Counted from the first letter of the stretch, positions 13,653-64,000 are shown. The stretch is 64,000 nt of DNA from an uncultured Gammaproteobacteria bacterium (GCA_964625535.1 CAZVEX010000001.1:64295-128294); one strand, 5' to 3'. Notes: generated by a model not told the origin, from the sequence alone. Made by a program: numbers and translations.

Positions 13653-13664
13653 TTTAATGCGAAT

Positions 13665-35037: not shown

Positions 35038-35038
35038 C

Positions 35039-35649: not shown

Positions 35650-35659
35650 CTTTCCTGCG

Positions 35660-36634: not shown

Positions 36635-36648
36635 TAGAATAGGTTTAA

Positions 36649-46646: not shown

Positions 46647-47338
46647 TTAAATTTTCAAAGAAATATAATTTATTTTTAACCTTCTTATTTTATGCATATG
46701 GCTTCTTAAATTCTTTGCTATTCAAGTTTCAACTTTCAGTAATTTATTATCATTACGAGAAAAAGATTTTAAACTTAATTAATAATCTTCGTTCAAGTGG
46801 AGACTTACTTCTTACAGTTGTAGAAAGCCTACAAGTGTATGAATGCGCGAGAAGTGCACAAAAAATAAAAGGGGATTTTGCAGAAGTTGGAGTTTATAGA
46901 GGAGGGAGTGCTGTAATCATTTCAGAGGTCAAAAAAGGAAAGAAGTTCCATCTTTTTGATACTTTTGAAGGGTTGCCTGATAATGAGAAAATAGATTCAC
47001 TTGTTGGGGATAATTCAATGGTAAGCAATCTGGATGAAGTGAAAAGTAAATTAAAAAGATACAAGAATGTCTATTTTTATAAAGGTTTATTTCCAAAAAC
47101 CGGGAATAAAATAAAAAAAGATAAATTTGCATTTGTGCATCTGGATGTTGATTTATACAGAAGTACAATCAATAGTTTAAAATTTTTCTACCCTAAAATG
47201 AGCAAAGGAGGAATCATACTTTCACATGATTATCCCTTTATGCCGGGAGTAAAAAGAGCTTTTGATGAGTTTTTTGAAAATAGAAGGGAATTAGTTTTAA
47301 AGCTTTCAGGAAATCAAGCTATTGTAATTAAAATATAA
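46643..47338 (+). CDS. TylF/MycF-family sugar O-methyltransferase
   Basis: GDFAEVGVYRGGSAVIISEV, FDTFEGLP, HLDVDLYRST, SKGGIILSHDY match the macrocin-O-MTase family; start at 46643 (ATGA overlap) or 46631. Confidence 0.75.
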   Translation: MIKFSKKYNLFLTFLFYAYGFLNSLLFKFQLSVIYYHYEKKILNLINNLRSSGDLLLTVVESLQVYECARSAQKIKGDFAEVGVYRGGSAVIISEVKKGKKFHLFDTFEGLPDNEKIDSLVGDNSMVSNLDEVKSKLKRYKNVYFYKGLFPKTGNKIKKDKFAFVHLDVDLYRSTINSLKFFYPKMSKGGIILSHDYPFMPGVKRAFDEFFENRRELVLKLSGNQAIVIKI

Positions 47339-47340: not shown

Positions 47341-48105
47341 ATGGAAAACTATGAAGCTTTAAATGCATTAGAGAATGCAGTTAACTCCATTAAGGATAAG
47401 AAGGATAGGGAATTTTCTCTAGATGCCTTTTCGGGGCATAAAAGGAGATACCTTAATGATTTAAATATTATAAGAAATTTTTATAAAGGGGGCAAAATAC
47501 TGGACATAGGTTCATCTCCATACCATATGCTATTTTTGCTCAAAAAACTTAAGTGGGATGTATATGGCATAGATATAAATCCTCAAATCTTAAGGAAATT
47601 TCAAGCACAGCACGGATTAAAAGTAAAAAGTTGCGATATAGAAAAAGAGAAAATCCCCTTTAAAGATGGTCAATTTTCTTTCATCATTTTTAATGAAGTG
47701 TTTGAGCATCTAAGGATAGATCCCCTTGCTGCAATATTAGAAGTTAAGAGAGTATTAAAAAAAGGAGGCATATTACTTTTAACAACCCCCAACCTTTACG
47801 CTTTACACAAGATTATAATGTTTAACACCGGTTTTAGTTTCAACAATGCTTTTTTTGAATTTAATAAAGTTAAAACTACCGGATATATGGGACACATAAG
47901 GGAATACTCAAATAAAGAAATAAAAGAAATACTGATAAATTCAGGATTTAGAGTTAAATACACAAATTTTGAAAATTATAATAATTTTTCAAATGTTCAT
48001 TTTTTGAAGAGATTTCCTTTAAATATCCTTGTGCTGCTTTTTGATTTTATATTAAAAATCATTCCTCCATTTAGACAGTATCAGATTGTTGTTGCAATTA
48101 AATGA
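47341..48105 (+). CDS. Class I SAM-dependent methyltransferase
   Basis: ILDIGSSPYHMLFLL (motif I), VYGIDINP, GILLLTTPNLYALH. Confidence 0.7.
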   Translation: MENYEALNALENAVNSIKDKKDREFSLDAFSGHKRRYLNDLNIIRNFYKGGKILDIGSSPYHMLFLLKKLKWDVYGIDINPQILRKFQAQHGLKVKSCDIEKEKIPFKDGQFSFIIFNEVFEHLRIDPLAAILEVKRVLKKGGILLLTTPNLYALHKIIMFNTGFSFNNAFFEFNKVKTTGYMGHIREYSNKEIKEILINSGFRVKYTNFENYNNFSNVHFLKRFPLNILVLLFDFILKIIPPFRQYQIVVAIK

Positions 48106-48112
48106 AAATAAT

Positions 48113-49183
48113 ATGAAAATCAAAAGAAGAAATCATCCTTTAGTTTCGGTTTTGATTTTAACTTACAATAGGACGGATCTTTTAAAGATGTGTCTGGACA
48201 GCGCCTTAAAATCTAACTACCCAAATTCGGAATTTATTGTTTCCGATAATGCTTCACAGGATGATATAGCGGGATTTATCAGAAAAACTTACCCCCAAAA
48301 AAAGATTAGAGTTTACAAGAAAAAGAAGAACGGTGGTTTAACAGGGGGATTTAATTTTGGCTATCAATATTGTCGGGGGAAATACGTCATGTTGCTTTGT
48401 AATGATACCACCATCGCCAAGAAATCAATTTCCGAGATGGTCAAAATGGCGGAAAATGATCCAAAAATTGGCGCGATTGCTCCGAAAGTGACACAGATGA
48501 GACATCACGGTTATATCCACAGCGCTGGTAGCTTTCTAACTTCCAGTGGCCTGCTTTACCATTATGGAGTCTATCAAAAAGATGGTAAAAAATACCAAAA
48601 AAGTTATTATATTTTCAGTACAACAGGAGCAGGATTTCTCGTTAGAAGCGAAACTATAGCAAAGACCGGACTTTACACTGAGGATTTTTTTATGGCATAT
48701 GATGAGAGTGACCTGTGTCATCGCATTTGGCTTGCCGGGTACACAGTTGTTTATTGTCCCAAGGCGGAAGTTAAACATATGTGGAGCGCCACCATGCAGG
48801 TTATGAGTAACCCCGCAATTTGGTTTTGGAACCAAAGAAACGTAAATAGTTCCTTTATCTACAATTTTCAGTTGCGATATCTATGGCGATTTTTAATTAG
48901 CATTAATCTGGCGTTTATATTTTTTTCCATCTACAGACTTTTTAGCAGGCAAAGGGTATTTTCGGCAACTATTATCCAGGCATATTTATGGCACATTTTT
49001 CATATCAGACAAACACTGAAGAAACGGAAAATTATACAAAAAAAGAGAATTGTTTCAGACCGGGAAATTTTCCAAAAAGCCATGGTAAATCCTGACTTGG
49101 GATACTATCTAATCCATTTCCGGAAAAAATATTCGGATATGGAACTGCCAAAAAGAATAATCTACAACCTCAAATCTCCTTGA
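48113..49183 (+). CDS. GT2 glycosyltransferase with C-terminal membrane segments
   Basis: LVSVLILTYNRTDLLKMCLDSAL ... EFIVSDNASQDD ... YDESDLC; C-terminal hydrophobic LWRFLISINLAFIFFSIYRLF; start 48113 or 48086. Confidence 0.8.
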   Translation: MKIKRRNHPLVSVLILTYNRTDLLKMCLDSALKSNYPNSEFIVSDNASQDDIAGFIRKTYPQKKIRVYKKKKNGGLTGGFNFGYQYCRGKYVMLLCNDTTIAKKSISEMVKMAENDPKIGAIAPKVTQMRHHGYIHSAGSFLTSSGLLYHYGVYQKDGKKYQKSYYIFSTTGAGFLVRSETIAKTGLYTEDFFMAYDESDLCHRIWLAGYTVVYCPKAEVKHMWSATMQVMSNPAIWFWNQRNVNSSFIYNFQLRYLWRFLISINLAFIFFSIYRLFSRQRVFSATIIQAYLWHIFHIRQTLKKRKIIQKKRIVSDREIFQKAMVNPDLGYYLIHFRKKYSDMELPKRIIYNLKSP

Positions 49184-50333
49184 AGGCTTTGTCAAGAATA
49201 AAATTCAGGTCGTATTTTTTTGACAACTTTATGGCGTTTGTTTTATATTTTAAATAATTCTTTTTGCTGTTTAATATTTTTTCTACGGCTTTTACAAAAT
49301 CAATCTCACTGTAGTCAATGACTATTCCCGACTTCGTTTTTGAAATTTGGGAAGCAATTGTAGTCACTATTGTTGTTATGACCGGTAATCCGCAAATAAG
49401 ATATAGTTTTATCTTAGACGGATCAGATTTATAACTTACGCTCTCTTTAAGCGGAGCATAAGGCGCAAGGCCGATGCTTGATCTGGCAACTATATTTATC
49501 AGTTTGTAATAGTCTTCAATAAAACCTAAGAACTCCACATGATTTGAGATATTTAATTCTTTTATTAATCTCTTTAATTCTTTTTCGTAATAACCAGACC
49601 CAATAATAGTAAGCTTTATTTTGGAAAATTTAGTAATAAGTTTGGGGATTGATTTAATCACAAGTTGTAGACCTGCCCATTCCAGTAATCCGCCTGTAAA
49701 AATTATTCTAAAGTAATTAATCCTATCAATCGGCATGGGTTTAATTTCTGACCTGTCATAACCGATAGGAACAATTGAAAATTGTGAGAATTGGTTTAGG
49801 GGACCATAATTTGCCTTTCTTGCATTGATTTGTTCTTTAGTAACTACCCAATTAATATCTGAATATCTGCATGAAGCTTTGTCAATTAAGTAGTAAAGAT
49901 TATTCATTATTCTGTTGTTAAAACGCTTATTTGTGTAATCTATTGAATAATAAACTAAATTATTGATTAGGCCGATTTTCCTAAAGATTAAGGTTGAAAT
50001 TAGGGATAAATTTTCACAGGCAATGCAGATATCGAATCTAGAGAAAGATCTGACGATGAAGTATGAGGAAAGTAAGAAGTGGTATATAAATTGCAGCCAA
50101 TCAGGTCCTTTAATATTTGCAACCTTCTTTTGATAAACAAGTGTGCCTCTTTTAAAAATGCTTAGAAAAGAATATTGGATTTGAGCATGCGGGAAAGGGT
50201 GTTCAATATAAACAACCGTATCCGTTCTTTTTAGTAAGTATTTAAGAATTCCTGGAGCAGCCGGACCCTGGTTTGTCCTGATTACAAAATGCGTTAAAAG
50301 TAAAGTTTTTGTACTATCTTTTTTTATTTGCAT
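49170..50333 (-). CDS. GT4-like (GT-B) glycosyltransferase
   Basis: C-terminal [52 protein letters not shown] resembles GT4 E-x7-E region; 14-bp overlap with convergent GT2. Confidence 0.55.
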
Positions 50334-51276
50334 GCCTTTGATTTTTCAGATACCAGTCAATGGTTTGTTGCAAGCCTTTTTCAAAAGTTGTTTTTGCAGA
50401 AAAACCAAATTCTGATTTTGCTTTTTCTACATTAAGAAACCTTCTTGGTTGTCCATCCGGTTTGGTTTTGTCATAAATGATTTTTGCTTCAAAGCCGATT
50501 AATCTGCATATTAACTGCGTTAAATTTTTAATAGAGATTTCAAAGCCTGAACCTAAATTAACAGGTTCCGGTTTATTATATTTTTCAGCCGCTAAAATTA
50601 TTCCTTTCGCAGCGTCTTCTACAAATAGAAATTCCCGGGTAGGTTTTCCAGTCCCCCAAATTGTAATTGTTTTTTGGCCACCATTTTTTGCATCAATGAT
50701 TTTTCTTATGAGGGCAGGTATTACATGAGAATCTTTCGGATCAAAATTATCACCGGGTCCGTATAAATTTACCGGTAGAAGATAAATTGAATTGAAGTTA
50801 TACTGCTTTCTGTAAGCCTGGGATTGCACCAGAAGCATTTTTTTTGCAAGGCCATAAGGAGCATTTGTTTCTTCAGGATACCCATCCCATAAATCTTCTT
50901 CTCTAAATGGGATCTTAGTAAACTTCGGATAAGCGCATATTGTCCCAATTGCAACGAATTTTTTTACTTTAGCTTTTCTTGCTTCTTCCATTAACTGTAC
51001 ACCCATTATTATGTTGTCATAAAAAAGTTTTCCTGGATATTTTTGGTTATAACCTATGCCGCCTACATTTCCTGCTAGGTGAATTACGATGTCAGTATCC
51101 TTAACAACTTTTTTGCAGTTTGCTTTAAACCTTAAGTCAAAATCTTTAGAGCGCGGGATGATAATTTTTTTTGGATTTAATTTTTTGAGCTTATTGATTA
51201 CATGGATTCCTAAAAAACCACCCCCTCCAGTGACAGTTACTGTTTTTCCTTTCCAGAAAGAACTGATTTTTTTCAT
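50314..51276 (-). CDS. GDP-L-fucose synthase-like 3,5-epimerase/4-reductase (Fcl/WcaG/ColC-like)
   Basis: [18 protein letters not shown]; [15 protein letters not shown]; [28 protein letters not shown] is the Fcl signature. Confidence 0.75.
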
Positions 51277-51320: not shown

Positions 51321-53993
51321 ATGAGACAGGTCCTGTTTTTGATTATTTTATGTTTAACCCTGACCTTTATTTGGTTTCATAAGGGCTTAGTATTTGCCGG
51401 CGGAGAAGAAGGCATGCCATTTTACGATCTTGAAAAAACAGTAAGATATTATTCATCGGTTTGGCATGAATCAGGTACAGGATTTCCAGCAGTTAATGAA
51501 CAAAGAATTCCCATATTTAGTTTTCTTAGGATGTTTTACCAAGTAGGTATTCCGGGATTTGTGCTTCAGGCTTTCCTGTTTTTCTTATTGATGAGTATTG
51601 GCACTGTTTCAGTATATTTTTTAATAAAAGAAACAATTACAGCAGATCATAAGTATCTTCCACTGATTGGGGGAATATTTTATCTTCTTAATCCTTTTTC
51701 CATGACTCAAATTTGGGGAAGAGGACTCTATATGCAATTTTTCCCTTTTGCTCTTTTCCCGCTTTTTTTAATTTTGTTTATTTTAGGTTTGAAAAGAAAG
51801 AATTTTTTGTACGGGATTGCAGCTTTGATTTCTTCTGTTGTGTTTTCGGCGGCTTTTGACAATATTAGTTATGCTCTATCTCTTTGGCTTGTTATCTTCC
51901 TTTACGGTCTTTTTCACCTGATTAAACATTTTAATAAAAAAGAGATTATTTTTACTGTTGCATTTTTTACATTTCTGTTTTTAGGTTGGATTTTGTTACA
52001 TCTTTTTTGGATCCTGCCTTTTCTTGCTCTTTCCACCCAGCCTTATGCGGGTATAACAGAGAACCCGGAGCAGGGATTAGGTAGTTTAAGGGGTGTCAGT
52101 AGACAATACCCTTTGCATGTTTTGATAAGACTGATGCACAGCGGCTATTTTTTTGAGGATTTATACGGAAAAATTTATTCTGGTTTTATATTTGGTTTGA
52201 TCAGCTGGATTATTCCGCTGGTTTCACTTTTTTCCATCAAACAATTTAAAAAACTTTCCCATTTTTGGTTTTTTACCCCCCTTTTTCTTATTGGATTGTT
52301 TATCAGTTTAGGATCTAATTTCCCGTCGGGTTGGTTGTTCGAAGTACTGTTTAAATACATGCCCTTTTTCCAGATGTTCAGAAACCCTTTTGAAAAATTC
52401 GGTTTGGTTTTTTTAATTGCGTATGTGCCGTTTTTCTCTCTGGGAGCTTTAATAGTTGCTCAAAAAATTGGACATATCTTTAAAAAAGAAACAGCCAGAT
52501 TTCTAAGTCTTGCGATAATTATCGTGTTAGTTTGTGGAATCTATGTTTGGCCGATGTGGACAGGGATATTTGCGGGAGGCTATAGACTGAATCCATGGGT
52601 TAAAGTGCCGGATGATTATAAAGAAATGGAAAAGTGGCTGGATGGAAATTCGGAAGATTATAGAGTCTTTATGACCCCCATCTGGAGTGGTGATGGAACA
52701 TTCTACCAGTGGGGCAATACAAGATTTCAAGGGACTGACCCAATGATATATCTTATTAACCAACCGGCGGTTTCTTACAGCAGCCAGGTGCCTGGTTTTC
52801 TTTCAAGTATGCGGAAAAATATGGAGAGGATCAATCTGGCTCCATCTCTTGCGCTTTTTCAAGCCAAATACCTAATAGACCGGGTTGATGCGGTAATGAT
52901 CACAGAGGCTGAAAAACAGCACAGTAAGTTTTTAACAAGATTTGTGTATCCGCCTATGGGAATAAACTTAAGTACTCAAAAAGTTTGCCAAGACAAATAC
53001 GCGGATTCTAAAGCAAACGGCGTTGCTTGGATAACTTGTCAAATATCAGGTACCAATAGAGATTGGAGTAAAATAAAGTATGCGCATTTTGAGATTAAAA
53101 CAGATGTGCCGGCCTTTTTGGAAATTGCACTTAGAGATCAAGACGGGATTAGGATCAGGTGGTATGGTCCTGCTGATGCAGAATATCAAACAAACAATAA
53201 TGAATGGACAGTTGTGACCATTCCTTTAAGCGCGCCTACAGAATATAATCAGGCAATAAATTTTTCTAAAGTAGATTTAATAGAAATATTTGCCCATCCA
53301 ATATATTCCCCCCAGACCAGTGTGGGAGAAATCTTCCTTAAAGATATTATATTGGATCCTGGCAAAGAGGAGAAAACGCAAAGTTTTCACTTAGTTAATA
53401 CATTCGGCAAGCTACAAGTTTATGAGCCTTTCAACTTTAATTCTCCCCCTGAATTTGGTAGTTTATCATCGCTTAACTTGGTTCAGGACTTTGCGCAGTT
53501 GTTTGAGGAAGTAAACAGACAAATAGGTCAGCTTGATACAATAGGGTATATCTTAGCAACACAAAACAGCAGGAAAAATTTGCAGGAATTACCCTCTGAT
53601 GGTATCCTGCAGGTTATAGATAAAGATAAGATTTCTGATTCCAGATATTGGCTGGAGGTGAATAAAGGTGATGGTAACGGGTTGATTATTCTTAGTAAAA
53701 CATTTAATTCTCAGTGGAAAGTAATCCCCGGGATCAGCAAAGATCAGCTTAGCGGTAAATTTTTTGATAATTTGGTTCTTATTAGGGAAGCAGTATTGCC
53801 AGAAGACCAGCATTTTGCAGTTAATGGCTATGCAAATTTATGGAAAGTGAGCGAGCAAGATTCACAATATGCGATTGTATTCATGCCTCAAATTTTTGCC
53901 GATATTGGTTGGAAAGTATCTATTTTCAGTATAATATTGTTAGGTGGAGTTACATTAGTATGGGTTCTAAAAAAATATACATTTTTGCACTAG
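51321..53993 (+). CDS. Giant polytopic membrane protein with ~450-aa extracytoplasmic C-terminal domain (GT-C-like; DUF3367/AftD-like?), paralog A
   Basis: Start at ATG 51321 (MRQVLFLIIL); conserved with paralogs B/C: GGEEGMPFYDL, MFRNPFEKFGLVFLIAYVPFFSLG, VWPMWTGIFAGGY; C-terminal TM anchor. Confidence 0.5.
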   Translation: MRQVLFLIILCLTLTFIWFHKGLVFAGGEEGMPFYDLEKTVRYYSSVWHESGTGFPAVNEQRIPIFSFLRMFYQVGIPGFVLQAFLFFLLMSIGTVSVYFLIKETITADHKYLPLIGGIFYLLNPFSMTQIWGRGLYMQFFPFALFPLFLILFILGLKRKNFLYGIAALISSVVFSAAFDNISYALSLWLVIFLYGLFHLIKHFNKKEIIFTVAFFTFLFLGWILLHLFWILPFLALSTQPYAGITENPEQGLGSLRGVSRQYPLHVLIRLMHSGYFFEDLYGKIYSGFIFGLISWIIPLVSLFSIKQFKKLSHFWFFTPLFLIGLFISLGSNFPSGWLFEVLFKYMPFFQMFRNPFEKFGLVFLIAYVPFFSLGALIVAQKIGHIFKKETARFLSLAIIIVLVCGIYVWPMWTGIFAGGYRLNPWVKVPDDYKEMEKWLDGNSEDYRVFMTPIWSGDGTFYQWGNTRFQGTDPMIYLINQPAVSYSSQVPGFLSSMRKNMERINLAPSLALFQAKYLIDRVDAVMITEAEKQHSKFLTRFVYPPMGINLSTQKVCQDKYADSKANGVAWITCQISGTNRDWSKIKYAHFEIKTDVPAFLEIALRDQDGIRIRWYGPADAEYQTNNNEWTVVTIPLSAPTEYNQAINFSKVDLIEIFAHPIYSPQTSVGEIFLKDIILDPGKEEKTQSFHLVNTFGKLQVYEPFNFNSPPEFGSLSSLNLVQDFAQLFEEVNRQIGQLDTIGYILATQNSRKNLQELPSDGILQVIDKDKISDSRYWLEVNKGDGNGLIILSKTFNSQWKVIPGISKDQLSGKFFDNLVLIREAVLPEDQHFAVNGYANLWKVSEQDSQYAIVFMPQIFADIGWKVSIFSIILLGGVTLVWVLKKYTFLH

Positions 53994-55120
53994 CTGCAGC
54001 AGGTCAGGGGATTTCTGGCGGAGATAGAATCTTCATTGAATTTGCCAAGAATTGGAGTAAAAGATTTCCCGTCACAATTTATCTCTGGGAGGAAGGATAC
54101 CAGATGTGTAAAAGAGCACATTTGGATTCTCACATCAAATTTCTAATTTCTAAAATGGGGCCATGGAAGAATTTTGGATTTTTCATAAATTATATTGCTA
54201 GAATCATTGAAGGAGTAAGACTTGGGTTAACCTTAAAAATTGAAGATCCTGAAAATACCATGGTATATTCGGCTTCGGAATTTTGGATGGATTCCTTGGC
54301 GGCGTTTATTTTAAAGTTGAGGTATCAAAAAATAGTATGGGCAGCAGCCTGGTATCAAACAGCGCCCAATCCGTTAGAAGGGTTTTCCGGCTTTCTACCT
54401 TATTGGTTAGTTCAACTCCCAATAAAACCTCTGATTGATAGATTTGCCAATTTTGTTTTGGTAAATAATGATCTTGAGAAGAAGGTATTTAAAAAACTAG
54501 ACAGGGAAAACAAAGCTATTGTAGTTTTAGGAGCAATAGATCTTAAGGAAATAAAAAAGTGGCAAAAGATTATAGGTAAAAAGGAGAAAATTTACGATTG
54601 TGTATTTCAGGGAAGATTTCATCCGCAAAAAGGAGTTTTGGAGATGATTGATATTTGGGCAAGAGTGATAGGATTTAAAAAAGATGCAAAACTTATAATG
54701 ATAGGAGATGGACCGCTAATGCAAAGGGTAAAGGATAAAGTGAAAAGGGAAAAGTTAGAAAAAAATATAGAGCTGACAGGATACTTATTTGATGGAGAGG
54801 AAAAATATAAAATATTTGTTCAAAGTAAGATAGTGGTGCATCCTGCTATTTTTGATTCCGGAGGGATGGCTTCGGCAGAGGCCATGGCTTTCGGTCTGCC
54901 TGCTGTTGGATTTAATTTGAGCGCTTATCAATACTACTATCCAAAAGGAATGATTAAAGTTCCGATCAAAGATTTAGACGCTTTTGCCAAAGAAATTATA
55001 ATGTTACTATCAGATGAAAAATTTTACAAAAAAGTGAGCAAAGAAGTTTTGCAGTTTATAAACGATACATGGAGCTGGGAATATAGATCTCGTCAAATAC
55101 TCCAGGCGGTGTTAAAATAA
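53960..55120 (+). CDS. GT4-family glycosyltransferase
   Basis: Start at ATG 53960 with GGTGGAG 9 nt upstream; C-terminal GGMASAEAMAFGLPAVGFNL and GRFHPQKG motifs. Confidence 0.8.
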   Translation: MGSKKIYIFALAAAGQGISGGDRIFIEFAKNWSKRFPVTIYLWEEGYQMCKRAHLDSHIKFLISKMGPWKNFGFFINYIARIIEGVRLGLTLKIEDPENTMVYSASEFWMDSLAAFILKLRYQKIVWAAAWYQTAPNPLEGFSGFLPYWLVQLPIKPLIDRFANFVLVNNDLEKKVFKKLDRENKAIVVLGAIDLKEIKKWQKIIGKKEKIYDCVFQGRFHPQKGVLEMIDIWARVIGFKKDAKLIMIGDGPLMQRVKDKVKREKLEKNIELTGYLFDGEEKYKIFVQSKIVVHPAIFDSGGMASAEAMAFGLPAVGFNLSAYQYYYPKGMIKVPIKDLDAFAKEIIMLLSDEKFYKKVSKEVLQFINDTWSWEYRSRQILQAVLK

Positions 55121-55128
55121 CTTCTTAT

Positions 55129-56052
55129 ATGAAAAGCAAACCCTTGGTGGGTGTTTCGGCAGTAATACCAAGCTTTAATGATAAATTAAAAGTTTTTAGG
55201 CTTCTTGATTCTTTAAAAAAATCAACATATCCGAAACTGGAAGTTATTGTTGTTGTAAACGGGCCGATTGATACACTTTCAGAAGGCAAAATTAAGTATG
55301 ATTGGGTCCACTGGATTGATGGAGGAAGAGAAAATATCGGTCAGACCGGCTGCTATAACTTGGGTTTTGCCTATGCTGATAAAAAATGTGATCTGCTTTA
55401 TGTTGATTCTGATGTGATAGTTGATAAGAATATGATTTCCAATCTGGTTAAAGCCGCCTACTCAAATCCCAAAATCGGCATAGTAACGCCGATGATTTCG
55501 TATCTTTCTGATAAAAATTGGGTCAACCAGGCAGGGGCAAATGTGAATCTGATAACCGGGAAAGTGTCAGTAGGTTGGGGTCCACGAAAAGATTTTTTGC
55601 TCGCCAAGGAAGTACAGAATTCTGGTACTGCGATGTTGATTAAGAGAAAAGTGGTTGATAAAATCGGGGGCGTTGACGATTGGTTTCTGTGTTATTTTGA
55701 TCCGGATTATTGTTTAAGGGCCAAAAAGGCCGGATTTATCATCTGGTATGAGCCCAAAGCTATCTGCTATCATGATCAGTCAAAAGATCCGGATCTGTGG
55801 AGGCCCAGAGTTTTGACAAGGGCATATCTTTTGGGAAGAAACAGGGTTTTGTTTATGAGAAGGCATGGTAACATGATAACTTTTTCTCTTTTTCTTCCTC
55901 TGCTTTTAGGTTATTATTTCTTCGAAGTCTTGCGCTTTGGGCAAATTAGAAAATTTTTTGAGCTTACATGGGGGAGTATCGTGGGGTATTTTTATCCCCT
56001 AAAGCAGGATAATTTTATCCCACTGCCAAAGATAAAAAATAGGTTAAAATAG
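55129..56052 (+). CDS. GT2 glycosyltransferase with C-terminal TM segment
   Basis: VSAVIPSFNDKLKVFRLLDSLKKSTYPKLEVIVVVNG ... YVDSDV ... FDPDYCLR. Confidence 0.8.
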   Translation: MKSKPLVGVSAVIPSFNDKLKVFRLLDSLKKSTYPKLEVIVVVNGPIDTLSEGKIKYDWVHWIDGGRENIGQTGCYNLGFAYADKKCDLLYVDSDVIVDKNMISNLVKAAYSNPKIGIVTPMISYLSDKNWVNQAGANVNLITGKVSVGWGPRKDFLLAKEVQNSGTAMLIKRKVVDKIGGVDDWFLCYFDPDYCLRAKKAGFIIWYEPKAICYHDQSKDPDLWRPRVLTRAYLLGRNRVLFMRRHGNMITFSLFLPLLLGYYFFEVLRFGQIRKFFELTWGSIVGYFYPLKQDNFIPLPKIKNRLK

Positions 56053-56055
56053 CTT

Positions 56056-56715
56056 ATGAGCCTTTTTGACAAACTAAAGATTACCTTACCTTTTTCATAT
56101 ATGAAGCTTCTTCGTGACGGCATAGGAGAGGGAGAAACCATTTTAGATCTTGGTTGTGAAGACGGCAGATTGCTGGATCTTCTGTCTGAAGGAAAAGATT
56201 GGAAAATTACCGGTGTGGATATTTTTCAAAAGAATGTTCGGAAAGCGGCCAAAAGAAAAATTTTTGTAAAGGTGGTCAAGGGAGATGTGGTGGAAATTTC
56301 AAAAAAATTAATTAAGCAAAAGGCAAAATTCGATGTGGTATTTTGTTCTCAAGTTATAGAACATATAAACAGAAAAAAGGGTGAAGAGCTTTTAAGCATA
56401 GTTGATAAATTAGCGAGGAAAAAAATTATAATGGGGACTCCGCGCGGTTTTATGGAGCAGCCACACGCTTTTTTGGGAGATAATCCCCACCAGGTGCATA
56501 AGTCCGGTTGGACTGAAGTTGACTTTAAGAAAAGAGGCTACAAAGTATATGGTATAGGGTTTGGTCCTGTCTGGTCCGAGGCAGGATTAGGCAGAGCCTA
56601 TTCTAAACCGGTTGCCTTTTTGGCAAGCATTATTTCCTATATCTTTTCTCCGGTAGTTTATTTCTTTCCTTTTTTGGCTGCCGGGATACTCTGTTTTAAA
56701 GAGATAAAAAGATGA
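56056..56715 (+). CDS. Class I SAM-dependent methyltransferase with C-terminal TM anchor
   Basis: ILDLGCEDGRLLDLL (motif I), FCSQVIEH; paralogous to C-terminal domain of 56712..58316. Confidence 0.7.
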   Translation: MSLFDKLKITLPFSYMKLLRDGIGEGETILDLGCEDGRLLDLLSEGKDWKITGVDIFQKNVRKAAKRKIFVKVVKGDVVEISKKLIKQKAKFDVVFCSQVIEHINRKKGEELLSIVDKLARKKIIMGTPRGFMEQPHAFLGDNPHQVHKSGWTEVDFKKRGYKVYGIGFGPVWSEAGLGRAYSKPVAFLASIISYIFSPVVYFFPFLAAGILCFKEIKR

Positions 56716-58316
56716 ACCTAAAATTAGTTTCCGTTGTTATAGTTTCCAAAGACAGAAAGAAAGATTTAATAGATTGTATAAATTCGTATCTTCAATCCTC
56801 CTATAAATCATTGGAAATTATTGTCGTTGATAATGGTTCCAGACCGCCGCTTTTTAGCTGGTTTACAAAGAAATACCCAGGCGTGAAACTGATTACTTCA
56901 GAATTTAATATAGGTGCCGCAGCCGGGAGGAATTTAGGGTTTAAAGAGGCAAAAGGGGATTATATTCAATTTAGTGACGATGATGCTTATGCGGATAAAA
57001 ATATGATTAAAAATTTAGTATCAGTATTTGAAAAAAATCCGCAGGCAGGCATAGTCCAACCTCTTGTTTATGATAGAGCAAGAAAAGATATGTTGCAGGG
57101 TGCAGGTCATGATATAGATTTAACCACGGGTAGAATTAAGGCTTGGGGCGTAAAAGAGAAAGATAAAGGGCAATACGAGGGACTGCGGGAAGTTCCTATG
57201 TGTGGATGTGTTTGGATGGTAAAAAGGGAAGTGTTTGAGCGGATTGGTAACTATGATGAGGACTATTTTATTCCCTATGAAGATTCTGATTTTTCGATAA
57301 GAGCAAGAAAAGCAGGTTTTAAACTTTACTGCTATTCAGAGGCTAAAACATGGCACAGGGGACTCAAAGCAACCTTTGTCCATCCATGGATAGAATGGTT
57401 GGGGATAACATCTCCCGAGAGGGCCTACCGAGTAGCCAGAAATAAAATAATTTTTATGAGGAAACACTCTCCTTTTCCTTTGAATCTTGTCTTCTTTTTA
57501 ATTTTAGTACCGGCATATTTATTGACTCATTCTACGATTATTGCTCTGGCAAAAAGATTAGACATCCTTTTTAAATATTGGTCGGGAGCTCTATCGGGTA
57601 TTTTATACGCCATAACCTACCCCTTTGGAAAAAAAATTATTAATAAATACAAACAGCTGGATGAAAAGCTGGAAGGATTTAAAGTTTGGCTTTTGGCCTG
57701 GACAGATCCATTAACCTGGGTGTTGGATCCCGGTGTTAAAACTGTTTTGGATTTGGGGTGCGGACAGGGAAAGCCGATGGAGTTTATAAAATACAGGATT
57801 AAGATAAAAAAATCCGTCGGCGTAGATTTATTTGAACCATACATTGAAGAGGCAAGACAAAAAAAGATTCATGATAAGTATTTGATTGCCGATATAAGAA
57901 AATTGAAATTACCGGCAAAATCTTTTGATTTGGTGATGGCCTCTCATGTTTTGGAGCACATGCCAAAGAGTGATGCCTGGAAATTATTAAGTAATATGGA
58001 AAGGATGGCCAAAAAGCAGGTAATTATAGCAACTCCAATTGGCGAACATTACCACCAGCTGGAAGATGGGAATATTTGGCAACTGCATGTGTCGGCTTTC
58101 ACACCGAAAGATTTTGAGGATAGAGGATACAAGATTAAAAAATATGGCTGGAAGTGGTTGTTGGGGGATCACGGCATAGTGCATACCGTCAAAAATGACA
58201 TAATTAGAAAATTACTTTATACCTTTAACATACTGGCCACCCCTATTTACTATTATTTCCAGTCCAGTTGTGATTATATATTTGTGGCATTCAAGGATCT
58301 TGAGAATGATAAGTAA
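56712..58316 (+). CDS. Bifunctional GT2 glycosyltransferase - SAM methyltransferase fusion
   Basis: N-term VSVVIVSKDRKKDLIDC ... EIIVVDNGS ... FSDDDAY ... YEDSDFS (GT2), mid TM segments, C-term VLDLGCGQGKPMEF ... MASHVLEHMP (MTase). Confidence 0.75.
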   Translation: MNLKLVSVVIVSKDRKKDLIDCINSYLQSSYKSLEIIVVDNGSRPPLFSWFTKKYPGVKLITSEFNIGAAAGRNLGFKEAKGDYIQFSDDDAYADKNMIKNLVSVFEKNPQAGIVQPLVYDRARKDMLQGAGHDIDLTTGRIKAWGVKEKDKGQYEGLREVPMCGCVWMVKREVFERIGNYDEDYFIPYEDSDFSIRARKAGFKLYCYSEAKTWHRGLKATFVHPWIEWLGITSPERAYRVARNKIIFMRKHSPFPLNLVFFLILVPAYLLTHSTIIALAKRLDILFKYWSGALSGILYAITYPFGKKIINKYKQLDEKLEGFKVWLLAWTDPLTWVLDPGVKTVLDLGCGQGKPMEFIKYRIKIKKSVGVDLFEPYIEEARQKKIHDKYLIADIRKLKLPAKSFDLVMASHVLEHMPKSDAWKLLSNMERMAKKQVIIATPIGEHYHQLEDGNIWQLHVSAFTPKDFEDRGYKIKKYGWKWLLGDHGIVHTVKNDIIRKLLYTFNILATPIYYYFQSSCDYIFVAFKDLENDK

Positions 58317-61300
58317 AAATCGATTTCTTCCACCAGCCTTTTTTGCCTTGCTGGCAACCGTACTCATTATCTCATGGTTTCGATATGGCCATCTTTATGG
58401 CGGAGGAGACGTGGGGATTCCATCCTACGATCCGCAGAGGATTCTGGATATTGCCAGGTTTGTCTGGTGGGATGTGTCAGCTCCCGGAACTACTGTTCCT
58501 CACGGTTTGACCTCCGTACCCTTTCAATTTATTCAGGCCAATCTTGCTAATTTTGGATTATCATATGTGGCTATTCAGGCGCTATTTTTTTGGATAATTC
58601 TCTTTTTGATGGGGTATGGGATGTTTCTTTTGTCGCTGACTGTTTTTGGCAAAGATAAGATAGGTTTGGCGCTTTTGTCAGGCCTTTTTTATGAGCTTAA
58701 CCCTTATATGATGATTGAGATTTGGCACAGGTTTATCCACACCACATTTTTTTTAGCGGCCGCGTTGCCATTTATTTTCATTTTTTGGACAAAATGGATT
58801 AAGAATGGCAAATTTACATTTTTGTTCTTATTTCTTTTAGTAAGTTTTTTGAGTACTCATCTTTTTGGAACCCTTGGCTTTGCCTTCACCATCATTTTTC
58901 TTCTTATTTTTATCTTCTTGGTTGAAGGGTTTATTCCCTGGCAAGGCATCTCTCATTTTCGAACTGTCAATGCAAGATTTGTAGTGGGTGCGCTATTTTG
59001 GCTTACCATTCATCTGTGGTGGTTGTTGCCGGTTCTAAATATTACTCCTGTTACTGTATCTGCCCAACATACCATTGGGGGAAGTTTGGCAACTTTACGG
59101 GAAATTAGCAAGCAAAGTATTATTCCTCATATTTTGGCGGGGATAAATCCCTATTATCTTTATGAAGTGGCCGATTGGGGTGAAATTTATGATTGGGCGA
59201 TCTTCCGCATGACCCCCTTTTTGGTACTGGTTTTTCTGATACCGGGTTTTGCGATATCTTTGCAAAGCAAAAAATTGGTTGGTTGGTCTCTGCTTTTTTT
59301 ATCAGCCATTATGCTTTCCAAAGGTATGGCTGAACCTTTTGGTAATCTTTTTTCCTTGGCCTTTAGCAAGTTTTTTGTACTAGGGACCATCAGAAATCCT
59401 TTTGAAAAGCTGGGGATTTTAATTCCTTTTGCCAGTTCCATCTTGTTTTCCATGGGAATAAGTTTTTATTTACGACATTTTGGCGGTAAGTCCCAATGGT
59501 TTGTTAAACCTATGATTACCATAGTCTTAATTTTATTCTTGGGGTTTTTTGCTTGGCCTATGTGGGGCGGAAAGTTATTCGGTAAGTATGACAAACTGGC
59601 TTTCGTGGAAATACCCCCCAGCTATATCGAGGCTGACAACTTCCTAAAAAGCGAGGGTAAGGATGGTAACATCTTACACTTACCGCTCACAGTTGGTGAA
59701 TCTGCCACTTATTATTGGCAATACGGTTACAACGGCGTTGAATCTTCTCAACTGTATTTCACTGCTTTGCCTTCTATATCGCGCGGATTTAACATAGATC
59801 ATATTGACGATGCCCTTTTGGCTTTGTCCAATATTTTTTCCTCAACTTCCGTTGATGACGAGAAAATTATTACTTTACTAAAATCCTTCAATGTGAGATT
59901 TATTATTTTACACAAAGATATGGAGTGGCGGGGGGGGAGCTTACGCGATCCGGCAGAACTGGAGCTAGTATTAAATAGAGCGAACTTCCTTTTAAGAGAA
60001 GCCCAATTTGATCAACTGGTAATTTATCAAGTGAAGGATGAGTACTTTGCCCCCAGAATCGAACTGACCAACCAGGTGCAGTACTTAGATTCCGGTAAGG
60101 GTGGCCTGTGGCCGCATCTTTTAAGGCAAAATCAAGGCGCTTTCATTACTCCTCAGGATTCCAAGAAGCTAATTTTGTCCAAGGCGGATGAAAAGATCAT
60201 CCTGCCGCAACAATCTTATCTTTATGATTTTTTGGATACTCCCTTGGAGCAGGCAGTGGGAGAGTTGCCTTCTCCTTCAAGCAAATTTTTTCCTGATTCT
60301 CCGCTTTATTTTTTTACAAGACTTAAAGAAAAAATTGATGTTTTAACTGCTTCTTATGATCAGAAGTTTCTTGTTAAATTAGCACATGCCGGCAAAAGGT
60401 TGGTTGAAGCTTATAATTTGAAGCAAAAATCAATTTCAGTTCTCGGTACTATCAAGATATATCAAAATCAGATGAACGATTTATTCAAGGATAAGTTTTT
60501 CCGGAATGAACTGGGAAGCTCATTGGATAGGCAAACTTTGGGAAAGATTTTTTCAAAACACTTGGCTATTCTGAAATCCTTAGAATCAAGCGCCCATGGG
60601 GTAGAGTTGGAGTTGTTGGACAATTTGAGGACATATAATTTTATTCCCAAAGTAAGTAAGGACCAGGAGCAAGCACAGGTCAATATAGCCAATTTTGAGA
60701 TTCCCGAGACAGGCCCATACCAGCTCTTGCTTGTCTCTCAAGATAGCGAAAATTTCTATCCTCAAAATCTCAAAAAGATGCGTTTTTACATCAACGGTCA
60801 ACCTGTTGATCTGTCAGGGGAAAAATTCGGGCAATTTCTTTCTTTTGGTGATATTGCTCTGGATGGAGGACCAGTAGAGATTTCATACCCGGTTTTGGAT
60901 TCTAATAATCTGATAGAAGTAAAAGATGAAACTCAAGAACTGGAGTTAACTTCCGACAAACACCAGCCAACACAATATGAGGTAGAAATAACTCCTGTCA
61001 GTCCCAATACGGAGTATAGATTTGAATTTGAATCCTGGATTAAAAAAGGTGATTGGTTTAAGGTAGAACTTATACAGGATACGGATCGTAGTTTCCCCGG
61101 CCAAGAGTGGACTATTGTAAAAGATAATTACAATAATTTCTTTAGTAATAATACCGTCTCTTTTACCCTTCACTCTCAAACAACACAGGCAAAAATAAAA
61201 CTTTTAGTGGAACCTTGGGATGATTGCAAAAAATTTTATGGAATTGAAAAAAAGTGTCAAACAAAAAAATCGAGAGAGCCCTTTGAGCGGGAATCTCAGG

Positions 61301-61710
61301 TTACTTTTAAAAACTTAAAACTTATCAGAAGATTAAATAATCCGGTATTTTTAAAATCCCATCCTGTCAAAAAAGATATCGAGAGTGGCGGCAGCATCAC
61401 ATTCAGACAAGTTAGCTCTGTTCTTTTTCAGGGAGAGCTTAAGCTCGCCAGGCCCTCCTTCCTGATATTTAAAGAAAGCTTCCATCCTGACTGGCAGCTT
61501 AAATTGGAAGGAGATCAGGGTAGCTTTTATCCGCAAGAGAGATTTTCTGCTAACAGCTTTGCCAATGCTTGGTATATAGAAGAGACAGGAGATTATCGCT
61601 TCAGCCTAGAGTTTGTTGGCCAAAGATGGGTAGACTTTGGTAGAGGATTAAGTATTTTCGGAGCTGCATCCGTAGTATTTTTGGCCATTTGGCAAAAAAG
61701 AAGAGGGTAA
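58306..61710 (+). CDS. Giant (~1134 aa) polytopic membrane protein with ~650-aa extracytoplasmic C-terminal domain, paralog B of 51321..53993
   Basis: Start at ATG 58306 (MISKNRFLPPAFF); GGDVGIPSYDPQRILDIARFVWWDVSAPGTTVPHGLTSVPFQF, IRNPFEKLGILIPFASSILFSMG, AWPMWGGKLFGKY; C-terminal TM FGAASVVFLAIW. Confidence 0.5.
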   Translation: MISKNRFLPPAFFALLATVLIISWFRYGHLYGGGDVGIPSYDPQRILDIARFVWWDVSAPGTTVPHGLTSVPFQFIQANLANFGLSYVAIQALFFWIILFLMGYGMFLLSLTVFGKDKIGLALLSGLFYELNPYMMIEIWHRFIHTTFFLAAALPFIFIFWTKWIKNGKFTFLFLFLLVSFLSTHLFGTLGFAFTIIFLLIFIFLVEGFIPWQGISHFRTVNARFVVGALFWLTIHLWWLLPVLNITPVTVSAQHTIGGSLATLREISKQSIIPHILAGINPYYLYEVADWGEIYDWAIFRMTPFLVLVFLIPGFAISLQSKKLVGWSLLFLSAIMLSKGMAEPFGNLFSLAFSKFFVLGTIRNPFEKLGILIPFASSILFSMGISFYLRHFGGKSQWFVKPMITIVLILFLGFFAWPMWGGKLFGKYDKLAFVEIPPSYIEADNFLKSEGKDGNILHLPLTVGESATYYWQYGYNGVESSQLYFTALPSISRGFNIDHIDDALLALSNIFSSTSVDDEKIITLLKSFNVRFIILHKDMEWRGGSLRDPAELELVLNRANFLLREAQFDQLVIYQVKDEYFAPRIELTNQVQYLDSGKGGLWPHLLRQNQGAFITPQDSKKLILSKADEKIILPQQSYLYDFLDTPLEQAVGELPSPSSKFFPDSPLYFFTRLKEKIDVLTASYDQKFLVKLAHAGKRLVEAYNLKQKSISVLGTIKIYQNQMNDLFKDKFFRNELGSSLDRQTLGKIFSKHLAILKSLESSAHGVELELLDNLRTYNFIPKVSKDQEQAQVNIANFEIPETGPYQLLLVSQDSENFYPQNLKKMRFYINGQPVDLSGEKFGQFLSFGDIALDGGPVEISYPVLDSNNLIEVKDETQELELTSDKHQPTQYEVEITPVSPNTEYRFEFESWIKKGDWFKVELIQDTDRSFPGQEWTIVKDNYNNFFSNNTVSFTLHSQTTQAKIKLLVEPWDDCKKFYGIEKKCQTKKSREPFERESQVTFKNLKLIRRLNNPVFLKSHPVKKDIESGGSITFRQVSSVLFQGELKLARPSFLIFKESFHPDWQLKLEGDQGSFYPQERFSANSFANAWYIEETGDYRFSLEFVGQRWVDFGRGLSIFGAASVVFLAIWQKRRG

Positions 61711-61714
61711 TTTC

Positions 61715-62047
61715 ATGAAAAGACTCGGGCAATTTATTCTTTTATTTTTAATTTTATTACCGGTGATATCTTTTATCAATACTAATCTTTTAATAAATTT
61801 TTGGGCTAAAATGAGTCAGGATTTAATTTTTAGCGTTTGTTTGTCAAGCTCCATATTCTTTCCTGGGCTTAAGAAATATTATCTGATTTTAGCTGCTATT
61901 TTGATTGTCCTGATGGTAGGATCATTTATGTTCAAAGTTGTCGCAATATCGGATTTGTTGGGCAGTACGGCAATTGGAATAGTAACTGTCATATTAATAA
62001 GCTATGTTCCTCAACTGGTAAAAAAGGGTTATATTGAAAATATATGA
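61715..62047 (+). CDS. Small (110 aa) three-TM membrane protein, unknown function
   Basis: MKRLGQFILLFLILLPVISFI ..., hydrophobic throughout; wedged between giant paralogs B and C with ATGA overlap to C. Confidence 0.45.
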   Translation: MKRLGQFILLFLILLPVISFINTNLLINFWAKMSQDLIFSVCLSSSIFFPGLKKYYLILAAILIVLMVGSFMFKVVAISDLLGSTAIGIVTVILISYVPQLVKKGYIENI

Positions 62048-64000
62048 AAAAATTTCTGCCGCCAGTAATTTTTTTGATAATATCCGCAGGAGTAACTTTT
62101 AGCTGGTTTAGACACGGCTTGATCTATGGAGGTGGTGATGTAGGATTACCCACCTATGATCCTGCAAGAATTTTCGAGATTGCGAGATTTGTCTGGTGGG
62201 ACGGGGCTGCTCCCGGCACGCCCGTACCCCACGGTTTAACTTCGGTTCCGGTTCAATTTGGACTGTCCATTTTACAACTTGTTGGTTTTTCACCCCTGTG
62301 GTTACAGGCCACACTATTTTTTTTGCTACTTTTTTTAATGGGATTTGGTATGTATCTGTTCGTAGTTTTAACTTTTGGAGGGAAGTTTCGTTACTTTGCC
62401 CTGGTTGCCGGGTTGTTTTATATGTTCAATCCCTACATGATGATTTCCGTTTGGCATCGGTTTGTCCACAATGCCATTTTTCTGGCAGCCACACTGCCCT
62501 ATTTGGTCATTTTTTGGATCGCCTGGCTTAAAAAGGGCAGCCTTAAATATTTGCTGTTTTTTTTAATCACTAACTTACTTGGTGTTTACCTTTACGGCTC
62601 TTTGGCGTTTATTGTGACCGTATGGCTTTTAATGTTTTTAATCACATTGGGCCTGGGGATTTTCCCTTGGCAGGGTATTAAAAATCTGACAAAAATTTTT
62701 AGCCTTTTTCTGATTGGTTTGTTTTGCTTTGTGCTGACCAATGCTTGGTGGCTGGTGCCCACCTTTACTGTCGGGCCGGGACTTTTTTCCAAACAACATA
62801 GCCTTGAAGAAAATGTGGTGGGTTTAATCAGTTTAAGCAGACAGTCTATACTTCCCTTTACCCTTCAACTAATCAATCCATTTTATGTTATTAATCAGTC
62901 CGATTTTGGAAAAGCTCATAAACAGATACCTTTTTCCCTTATTCCCTGGTTAATCTTCGCTGTAGTGACGGTTGGGTTAGTAGCAGTGACCCGTTTGAAA
63001 GATAAGGTTTTTTGGGCCCCTGTTTTTTTAAGTATAGTGTTTTTAGCTAAGGGAGCTGCCGCTCCTTTTGAATTTATTTATTTGTGGGCGTTTACTAACT
63101 TTTTCCCCTTGGGAATAATTAGAAACCCCTTTGAAAAAATCGGTATCCTGCTGCCTTTTGTATCTTCGATATTGTTTGTGGTTGGTTTACAGATTTTATA
63201 TTTGAAGCTTAAAAGAATTTTTGATCATAAAGGCGCGGTGTTAATATTGATTTCCTTGATGCTTGTGATTTTGGTGTACGCTTGGCCAATGTTTTTGGGT
63301 AAAATTTTCGGACAACTGGATAATCCTTCTTTTGTGGAAGTTCCTCCCTATATCAGATCGGCCAGTGAATGGATCAAAATGCAGGGGAGGGAAGGAAGAA
63401 TCCTCCATCTTCCTCTATCAGTAACAGAGGATATCAGTTATAAGTGGCAGTGGGGATACCAGGGAGTTGAATCAAGCGATCTTTTCTTTAGTTCGTCTTC
63501 TGTAGCAAGGGGGTTTAATCTTCAGCCGGTAGATGATACTTTAAGTACCCTGTCGCTTTTTTTTAATAAGGCTTATGGAAAAAATTTAAAGCCGCTGGAG
63601 GAACTGATTGGAGCATTGAATATAAGATTCATCGTTTTACATAAAGATATTGACTGGAAGGGAAAAGAAATTTATAGCCCTGATGAGACAGAAAAATTTC
63701 TGGAGAATCTTCCCCTGGTTAAAAAGAAGGTCCGGTTTGGGGAACTTCTGATTTATGAGGTAAATGAAGAAGTTTATAGCGAGAAAGTGTCGGTTGCGCA
63801 AAATCTCGCATTTGTAACGCTCGGCAAAAATTTGAAAGTTTGGCCGTGGTTAGCAAAATCGGAGAACGGTGATATGGTTTCTCCAGCAGGTGACAGCCTT
63901 GATCAAGAACTCTTGGAGCAAGCCAGCATAGTAGTAGTTACCGCCAAAGAGCAGATGACCTTTTCCGAAGCGTCAAAAAGCGCCTTATTAAATAAAACTG
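62044..64000 (+). CDS. Giant membrane protein paralog C (3'-truncated by window end); not present in the supplied ORF track
   Basis: ATG 62044 opens a frame running to the window end: MKKFLPPVIFLIISAGVTFSWFRHGLIYGGGDVGLPTYDPARIFEIARFVWWDGAAPGTPVPHGLTSVPVQF ... IRNPFEKIGILLPFVSSILFVVG ... AWPMFLGKIFGQL, collinear with paralog B; listed ORFs 62108..62314(-) and 62196..62531(+) are shadow frames. Confidence 0.55.
   Translation, partial: MKKFLPPVIFLIISAGVTFSWFRHGLIYGGGDVGLPTYDPARIFEIARFVWWDGAAPGTPVPHGLTSVPVQFGLSILQLVGFSPLWLQATLFFLLLFLMGFGMYLFVVLTFGGKFRYFALVAGLFYMFNPYMMISVWHRFVHNAIFLAATLPYLVIFWIAWLKKGSLKYLLFFLITNLLGVYLYGSLAFIVTVWLLMFLITLGLGIFPWQGIKNLTKIFSLFLIGLFCFVLTNAWWLVPTFTVGPGLFSKQHSLEENVVGLISLSRQSILPFTLQLINPFYVINQSDFGKAHKQIPFSLIPWLIFAVVTVGLVAVTRLKDKVFWAPVFLSIVFLAKGAAAPFEFIYLWAFTNFFPLGIIRNPFEKIGILLPFVSSILFVVGLQILYLKLKRIFDHKGAVLILISLMLVILVYAWPMFLGKIFGQLDNPSFVEVPPYIRSASEWIKMQGREGRILHLPLSVTEDISYKWQWGYQGVESSDLFFSSSSVARGFNLQPVDDTLSTLSLFFNKAYGKNLKPLEELIGALNIRFIVLHKDIDWKGKEIYSPDETEKFLENLPLVKKKVRFGELLIYEVNEEVYSEKVSVAQNLAFVTLGKNLKVWPWLAKSENGDMVSPAGDSLDQELLEQASIVVVTAKEQMTFSEASKSALLNKT

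Follow-up and report, generated by a model that had tools for sequence, protein, structure and literature searches.

The last part of a 64,000-nucleotide stretch of contig CAZVEX010000001.1 (positions 64295-128294, assembly GCA_964625535.1, deposited as an uncultured Gammaproteobacteria bacterium), which is referred to as the window throughout, carries an array of genes for large membrane proteins, here named paralogs A, B, and C. We analyzed these proteins, their homologs, and their gene neighborhood; all positions are those of the window unless another contig is named. Paralog A (51321..53993, + strand) encodes 890 amino acids (aa) from the ATG at 51321, in an open reading frame (ORF) that opens at 51276; its database copy, P0121, has 884 aa and would start at the TTG at 51339. 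Paralog B (58306..61710, +) encodes 1134 aa from the ATG at 58306, in an ORF opening at 58270, and is identical in sequence to database protein P0001. A gene for a small membrane protein of 110 aa with about four hydrophobic helices (61715..62047, +), considered here as the partner of B, starts 4 nucleotides (nt) past the B stop and overlaps the start of paralog C with its stop codon. The latter begins at 62044 (+) and continues beyond position 64000, with 652 codons visible; its full length of 1080 aa was obtained from an overlapping and identical public contig that extends past the window end (L001, from the Logan assembly of SRR12113419). A previous sequence-only reading of the window had placed three large plus-strand membrane-protein genes here, interleaved with genes for a glycosyltransferase of family GT4, one of family GT2, a methyltransferase, a GT2-methyltransferase, and a 110-aa membrane protein. 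All of these were found by ORF, Pfam, and hydrophobicity analysis, and C had indeed been omitted by the ORF lister because it runs off the window.

The paralogy of A, B, and C was confirmed and is far above chance, with collinear transmembrane (TM) cores as had been supposed. B and C are 40% identical over 648 aa (E = 1e-156) and 34% identical end to end over 1137 aa, and A is 26% identical to B over 495 aa (E = 2e-35) and 27% identical to C over 482 aa (E = 8e-41). Within the window, tblastn detected no further copies of these genes.

Two motif blocks run through all three proteins. The GG(D/E)xG block is found in the first external loop of A as GGEEG (51399..51413, +), where it holds the candidate catalytic acidic residue E29/E30, and in the first external loop of B as GGDVG (58402..58416, +), where D35 is the candidate catalytic base; C also has GGDVG (62131..62145, +). 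The RNPFEK block is located in the loop ahead of the second-to-last core helix in A (52380..52397, +), at 59392..59409 (+) in B, where its R and K are candidate ligands of the donor phosphate, and at 63121..63138 (+) in C. Of the other blocks in the sequence-only reading, FVWWD..APGT.VPHGLTSVP is common to B and C as described, while WPMW is present in A and B but reads WPMF in C.

Homolog alignments showed that GG(D/E)xG and RNPFEK are invariant or nearly so. In the B/C family (51 sequences), R363, N364, P365, E367, and K368 are invariant, and G32-G34, D35, G37, Y41, and P43 are at least 90% conserved; in the A family (43 sequences), R354, P356, E358, and K359 are invariant. When the sub-families of A, B/C, and the more distant paralog D described below were compared, only a handful of polar residues was common to them, namely the acidic residue of loop 1, whose position after TM1 was read from the B model, and the R and K of RNPFEK. 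The acidic alignment column is occupied by E29 in 74% of A-type sequences (with E30 adjacent), by D35 in 96% of the B/C type, and by D31 in 100% of the D type. The R and K are 100% conserved in each sub-family and are the sole invariant basic residues across them.

Fold and domain layout of the paralogs

In searches against Pfam, C and A matched PF11847 (GT-C_AftD, formerly DUF3367) above its gathering cutoff of 26 bits. The match of C (38.0-38.1 bits) aligns residues 84-577 with profile positions 70-552, and that of A (35.1 bits) covers only residues 391-475. PF11847 is also precomputed on many A and B orthologs, such B orthologs being 34-48% identical. Some homologs are named "alpha-(1->3)-arabinofuranosyltransferase family protein" by NCBI, and one A homolog bears the source name "YfhO family protein"; at E <= 0.01, Pfam returned neither PMT_2 nor the Emb families nor YfhO for A, B, or C themselves.

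AlphaFold2 models of A and B were built with family alignments and had mean predicted local distance difference test (pLDDT) scores of 90.0 and 83.4 and predicted template modeling (pTM) scores of 0.86 and 0.79, respectively. When these models were compared with solved structures using Foldseek, AftD was the best match of both, with E = 2.4e-11 for A (6wby/6w98) and E = 2.5e-16 for B, for which the next family was STT3 (E = 7.6e-7). The lower-ranked matches were all GT-C enzymes, i.e., STT3, AftA, PglB, ALG12, AglB, ALG9, ArnT, DPY19, PMT, and Emb. The paper reporting the AftD structure lists hallmarks of the GT-C fold, which we used for comparison. The B model has a core of about 11 helices, with two short helices (residues 43-50 and 65-82) between TM1 and TM2, a helix broken at the conserved N132-P133 (119-131/133-141), and a very long helix of 32 residues (215-246). 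Thus, the polytopic N-terminal membrane domain, the helix arrangement, and the external soluble domain of a GT-C enzyme were all observed.

In paralog A, the GT-C core spans aa 1-413; outside the membrane, an alpha/beta domain (431-540) and beta-sandwich modules (559-854) follow, and the chain ends in a single C-terminal membrane helix (855-889). Paralog B has the core at aa 1-421 and the external alpha/beta domain at 438-640, followed by a helical bundle (647-777), beta-sandwich modules resembling carbohydrate-binding modules (CBMs; 791-1103), and a single C-terminal membrane helix (1106-1133); the architecture of C is the same. The C-terminal domain of B, estimated at about 650 aa in the sequence-only reading, is indeed a long external region, but measures about 685 aa (422-1105) and is followed by one membrane helix. 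The external region, CBM-like modules included, accounts for over half of each protein. Its beta-sandwiches match CBM4, CBM11, CBM16, CBM22, and related modules, with CBM11 matches for the sandwich of A. The helical bundle is present only in B and C, and in B it gives a weak match to DUF5667 (residues 662-726; 22.9 bits versus a cutoff of 27). A stand-alone DUF5667 protein of 182 aa is encoded elsewhere in the window (5883..6431, +) and scores above the cutoff, at 33.9 bits; this domain may be a recurring envelope-associated helical module in the lineage.

Altogether, the PF11847 matches, the fold matches, and the CBM-like sandwiches support the reading of these proteins as AftD-like, CBM-bearing GT-C enzymes, and we consider it likely that A, B, C, and D are integral-membrane GT-C glycosyltransferases of an AftD-like branch (PF11847). 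Hence, the resemblance to AftD/DUF3367-type transferases with external carbohydrate-binding domains, which had been suspected previously, is supported by both Pfam and fold. Identity as a transporter or protease is not supported, as no such signal was seen in Pfam or in the fold.

The conserved cluster and its small membrane proteins

The array continues past the window, so that the three genes noticed previously are real but are joined by a remote fourth paralog and a second small protein. On contig L001, C is directly followed by a gene for a small four-helix protein of 112 aa (9149..9487, +), which is paralogous to the 110-aa protein. Next are a polytopic protein of 482 aa with an SQDDF motif in loop 1 (9482..10930, -), paralog D of 878 aa (11126..13762, +), and, after D, a Wzx-like Polysacc_synt flippase (13770..14375, +). 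D has no Pfam match, and FRDSSKF replaces FRNPFEK; its alignments with A show 25-26% identity across 280-399 aa (best E = 6e-15) and stay collinear through the RNPFEK position. On these alignments, D is a remote fourth paralog.

Four plus-strand genes lie between A and B. A cytoplasmic GT4 glycosyltransferase (53960..55120; Glycos_transf_1, 79-80 bits) probably starts at the ATG at 53960 rather than at the ORF opening at 53840, judging from its N-terminus, MGSKKIYIF, and from homolog lengths of 389-407 aa. The GT2 glycosyltransferase after it (55129..56052; 307 aa; Glycos_transf_2 and Glyco_tranf_2_3) has a single hydrophobic segment near its C-terminus by hydropathy, and orthologs that are 67-82% identical occupy the same position in other loci. 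A class I S-adenosylmethionine-dependent methyltransferase (56056..56715; 219 aa; Methyltransf_12/25/31/23) and a GT2-methyltransferase fusion (56712..58316; 534 aa; Glycos_transf_2, 89 bits; Methyltransf_11, 61 bits) complete the set, with the stop of the fusion gene and the start of B overlapping by 11 nt. The GT4, methyltransferase, and fusion genes are likewise syntenic in related loci.

To survey this arrangement, 185,579 species genomes were searched with the family motifs, which yielded 26 loci, nearly all from metagenome-assembled genomes (MAGs) of Candidatus Daviesbacteria, Microgenomates, or Patescibacteria. The gene order A-GT4-GT2-methyltransferase-GT2/methyltransferase-B-small protein-C-small protein-(482-aa protein)-D is kept in about 20 of these loci. 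The source genome of the window is Candidatus Daviesbacteria, a member of the Microgenomates/Patescibacteria within the candidate phyla radiation (CPR). Many cluster carriers are titled "uncultured Gammaproteobacteria bacterium" (binchicken co-assembly MAGs; records L006, L009, L012, L016-L019, L021, L024-L027, and L029), and one A homolog is labeled "Actinobacteria bacterium." Because gene content and synteny match Daviesbacteria/Microgenomates, the Gammaproteobacteria titles look like placeholders or errors.

In a subset of genomes, the B position holds a divergent relative of about 1165 aa that is 24-26% identical to B (L020 6113..9622, L021 6183..9668, L023 3635..7138, L024 1587..5084, and L026 3689..7177). 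Downstream of these genes there is usually a small ORF, encoding 104-117 aa and 2-4 hydrophobic segments, which BLAST did not link to the 110-aa family, and in some of these loci the order of D and C is swapped. The divergent B-like replacement and the order swaps indicate that the cluster is conserved yet evolving. Literature searches on DUF3367, DUF5667, Patescibacteria arabinofuranosyltransferases, and Daviesbacteria glycosyltransferases found nothing on these proteins.

The 110-aa protein has a conserved C-terminal tail (consensus GS.GFG...SYLP.LIK.GYIEK) and belongs to no Pfam or NCBIfam family. An exhaustive phmmer search of 1.84 billion representative proteins identified 52 relatives, all of them stand-alone proteins of 59-129 aa, and a word-indexed homolog search returned the query itself only. 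A search with the small-protein profile against the PDB gave no match and no sequence link to AftD. We rejected a GtrA (PF04138) or SMR-type flippase as the identity of this protein, since none of 22 members examined matched such a Pfam family at E <= 10; the commonest noise match was DUF2070, in 11 members (best E = 0.33).

We then determined how regularly a small ORF with at least three hydrophobic segments directly follows each type of large gene. Such an ORF follows 13 of 14 B-type, 16 of 21 C-type, and 5 of 7 divergent B-like genes, and none of 19 D-type genes; it follows at most one of four A-type genes, that case being a remote 1024-aa relative in L028, and the window has no small partner gene after paralog A. 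In 25 of 28 cases, the nearest relative of a small protein in another genome follows the same enzyme type; therefore, B with its small protein and C with its small protein are old duplicated two-gene modules.

According to the AftD structure paper, AftD has 16 membrane helices in one chain, i.e., 11 core helices, TM12, and a four-helix bundle formed by TM13-16; this bundle binds acyl carrier protein (ACP), is required for function, and is unique to AftD. The chains of the paralogs stop after the single re-entry helix, and the ACP-binding bundle is thus absent from them. A tentative idea, which we regard as rather unlikely, is that the proteins of about 110 aa after B and C are the separately encoded counterpart of TM13-16. 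The helix count (1 + 4), the gene order, and the deduced N-in/C-in topology are consistent with it, as are the specificity of the pairing for B- and C-type enzymes and the co-divergence of the small proteins with their enzymes. No small protein fused to a large GT-C enzyme was found among the 52 relatives, and extra C-terminal helices are missing from all 239 long homologs; past residue 550, 217 of the latter have exactly one hydrophobic segment, and a C-terminal block of 4-5 occurs in none. The absence of fused forms therefore neither supports nor refutes a split bundle. Two 2026 preprints report that mycobacterial and corynebacterial AftD acts in a 1:1 membrane complex with TmaT; thus, intramembrane partnerships are part of the biology of the AftD family. 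If the bundle were indeed split, the B- and C-type enzymes would be obligate two-subunit GT-C enzymes whose small subunit is a regulatory or cofactor-binding module, and the AftD chain would be a fusion of two CPR-type genes, or the CPR genes its fission.

The glycan island around the cluster

By Pfam, the whole 64-kb window is made up of sugar-nucleotide and glycan enzymes, including GT4s, GT2s, epimerases/dehydratases, and acyltransferases, together with three DegT aminotransferases, C- and O-methyltransferases, and a carbamoyltransferase. Immediately upstream of A are a GT2 (48086..49183, +), a GT4 (49170..50333, -), and an NAD-dependent epimerase/dehydratase (50314..51276, -), all assigned by Pfam. 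This flank (48086..51276) is partly syntenic: in L010 all three genes lie ahead of the A ortholog, as does the GT2 in L008 and L011. Genes for decoration include a sugar C-methyltransferase (Methyltransf_14/13; 7212..8459, +), a NodU/CmcH-type carbamoyltransferase (44880..46646, +), and a TylF-type O-methyltransferase (46631..47338, +); taken with the three DegT aminotransferases and several dehydratases/epimerases, they imply heavily decorated deoxy-amino sugars that would be more typical of antibiotic or O-antigen pathways. A run of genes at 33815..38750 encodes a SIS-domain isomerase, a ribulose-phosphate 3-epimerase, a sugar kinase of the PfkB family, a protein of 529 aa that weakly matches a nucleotidyltransferase, and a phosphatase of the HAD type; we take this set to resemble a nucleotide-activated heptose pathway (GmhA/HddA/GmhB/HddC-like).

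Three GT2s of about 240 aa (2686..3405, -; 9315..10049, -; 12906..13652, +) have PpgS, AglJ, and Dol-P-hexose transferase as their best NCBIfam matches, with scores far below the curated cutoffs, and are candidate makers of lipid-linked donors for GT-C-like enzymes. One of them stands between two members of a second paralog array, which comprises four polytopic proteins of 611-649 aa (10955..12904, +; 13665..15554, +; 17743..19662, +; 19645..21480, -) with 10-13 hydrophobic segments and no Pfam match at E <= 1e-3. Identity is 34-46% among the first three and 23-24% between these and the fourth. All four carry an acidic pair and an aromatic residue just past the first helix (KPDDW, VEDW, SEDW, and GDDW), a loop motif that looks like that of ArnT/PMT-type GT-C enzymes. 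These proteins form a family distinct from that of A, B, and C, and they show weak similarity to the 482-aa protein encoded after C. Two other large polytopic proteins may be further GT-C-like enzymes; one (765 aa; 21414..23711, -) has 12 hydrophobic segments but lacks Pfam matches, and the other (501 aa; 31627..33132, -) matches PMT_2 weakly, below the cutoff (E = 7e-4).

Proposed function and relation to known systems

The cluster most likely decorates a cell-surface glycan. From what is established for GT-C enzymes, we infer that the paralogs are seated in the cytoplasmic membrane with their active sites on its outer face, where they would transfer sugars from polyprenyl-phosphate donors onto this glycan; they may thereby act as polymerases or branching transferases, as had been suggested previously. 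In the proposed mechanism, cytoplasmic enzymes of the island would make nucleotide sugars and a lipid-linked glycan, and the small GT2 enzymes would make polyprenyl-phosphate sugars, which would reach the outer side of this membrane. Each paralog would then move one kind of sugar from polyprenyl-phosphate to the growing surface polysaccharide, held by the beta-sandwich modules; the acidic residue of loop 1 (D35 in B) would be the catalytic base, and the donor phosphate would be bound by the invariant R and K of RNPFEK. The four conserved paralogs may correspond to four different linkages or steps, and the B- and C-type enzymes would work with the dedicated small four-helix membrane protein encoded directly downstream. 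The donor type, the catalytic residues, the acceptor, and the physical complex with the small protein are all proposed roles. As genomic context, the glycan enzymes of the window, the PpgS/AglJ-like GT2s, and the Wzx-like flippase after D fit this model. The essential residues of AftD are K39, D41, E251, K361, and D474; D35 (loop 1), K368 (loop before the tenth core helix), and E465 (external domain) of B are candidates for counterparts by position only. Specifically, we propose, on positional grounds, that the loop-1 acid and the R/K of RNPFEK stand where D41 and K361 of AftD would be expected.

Several observations count against an AftD-like assignment and the function proposed from it. The PF11847 match of A is short, B gave no match to this family at E <= 0.01, and no NCBIfam model matches A, B, or C. 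Neither phmmer with A, B, and C nor hmmsearch with the 51-sequence profile found an AftD or other GT-C match in the PDB at E <= 1, and the structural alignments to AftD have 9-13% identity; since direct sequence searches against solved structures were empty, the AftD link rests on the Pfam profile and the fold. To these must be added that the catalytic residues were assigned by position, that the three candidate donor-making GT2s score far below their cutoffs and lie 35-55 kb away in the window, outside the cluster, that the small protein is not a recognizable GtrA or SMR-type flippase, and that we found no experiments on any CPR member in the literature.

Oligosaccharyltransferases of the STT3/PglB/AglB type share the GT-C fold and form the second tier of structural matches, which raises the question of whether the paralogs instead transfer a pre-assembled glycan from polyprenyl-diphosphate onto a surface (S-layer) protein. 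We consider this improbable, as AftD is a far better match of the B model (Foldseek E of 2.5e-16 versus 7.6e-7), and the core has about 11 helices as in AftD, compared with 13 in STT3, AglB, PglB, and ArnT. A regular-expression scan found no WWDYG-type motif past the last core helix, the equivalent position in those enzymes; the only WWD is in loop 1, at residues 54-56 of B and 51-53 of C, and is absent from A and D. CBM-like modules are present instead of a peptide-binding domain and suggest a glycan rather than a peptide as acceptor, and four co-conserved paralogs better fit stepwise elaboration of such an acceptor.

AftD is the best match in both Pfam and structure, and NCBI names some homologs accordingly, so that the paralogs might be true functional AftD orthologs, i.e., arabinofuranosyltransferases that use decaprenyl-phospho-arabinose to make a branched arabinan. 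This appears more improbable still. The low identity and the empty sequence searches noted above leave no detectable sequence homology to AftD, and the 16 helices with a same-chain bundle that AftD requires were seen neither in the A and B models nor in the homolog scan. A Pfam scan of the ORFs of 150 aa or more across the 64 kb showed no UbiA- or DprE-type gene for an arabinose donor, and the neighbors point instead to deoxyhexoses with amino, methyl, and carbamoyl decorations and to a heptose-like pathway. Furthermore, PSI-BLAST in the AftD paper itself found homologs only within Actinobacteria. The idea to which we give the least credence is that the paralogs are catalytically inactive GT-C relics that, anchored in the membrane, bind glycans or act as scaffolds in envelope assembly. 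The large share of each protein taken up by the external CBM-bearing region would suit such a role, as would the partnership of mycobacterial AftD with TmaT, but catalytic activity of AftD is itself required in that mycobacterial complex, and the loop-1 acid and the R/K pair are kept in A, B/C, and D over deep divergence, a pattern like that of an active site.

CPR/Patescibacteria, whose genomes are tiny, live attached to other cells, and to our knowledge their envelope chemistry is essentially unknown. At least 64 kb of this genome is given to glycan synthesis, including four large AftD-like enzymes whose order is maintained across Daviesbacteria; this speaks for a surface polysaccharide that is complex, conserved, and relevant to this lifestyle. 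The sequence-only reading had pointed to the array as the likeliest place for an undescribed system. The family itself is in Pfam and its homologs are named by NCBI; what is undescribed is the CPR sub-architecture and the conserved cluster, and seen newly here are the continuation of the array past the window, the four-paralog conserved cluster in an uncultured CPR lineage, and the small partner protein.

In its logic, the cluster is a good functional analog of three-component periplasmic glycosylation systems such as GtrA/GtrB/GtrC, CsbB/GtcA/YfhO, and ArnC/ArnEF/ArnT, in which a GT2 loads polyprenyl-phosphate, a small membrane protein of about four helices takes part, and a GT-C enzyme modifies a polymer of the envelope on the outside. 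It differs from these systems in that the small protein matches neither GtrA (PF04138) nor the SMR type, the GT2s proposed to make polyprenyl-phosphate sugars lie apart from the cluster, and the GT-C enzymes are much larger, carry CBM-like modules, and form a set of four co-conserved paralogs. Other GT-C enzymes that depend on lipid-phosphate sugars (EmbA/B/C, AftA, ArnT, PMT, and ALG9/ALG12) match less well than AftD and differ in helix counts and external domains.

AftD of Mycobacterium abscessus/smegmatis (6W98, 6WBX, and 6WBY; PF11847) shares with the paralogs the core of about 11 helices, the two juxtamembrane helices after TM1, the proline-kinked third helix, and the one very long helix, and in both the external alpha/beta domain is followed by CBM-like beta-sandwiches and a single helix re-entering the membrane. 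The external region of AftD carries three CBMs, and that of each paralog one or more CBM-like sandwiches. Unlike AftD, which has about 1400 aa, the paralogs have 890-1134 aa; B and C contain a DUF5667-like helical insert, with which AftD has not been described, and have a separately encoded four-helix partner; and their host, a CPR bacterium, has no envelope of the mycolata type. The cluster therefore offers natural "minimal" relatives of AftD that lack the ACP-binding bundle, beside relatives paired with a separate four-helix protein, and such variants could help dissect the role of the bundle in AftD, an essential mycobacterial drug-target enzyme. Current knowledge is not overturned by these findings, which extend a known enzyme family into a new lineage: the cluster is a divergent, architecturally modified branch of that family, not a new kind of system.

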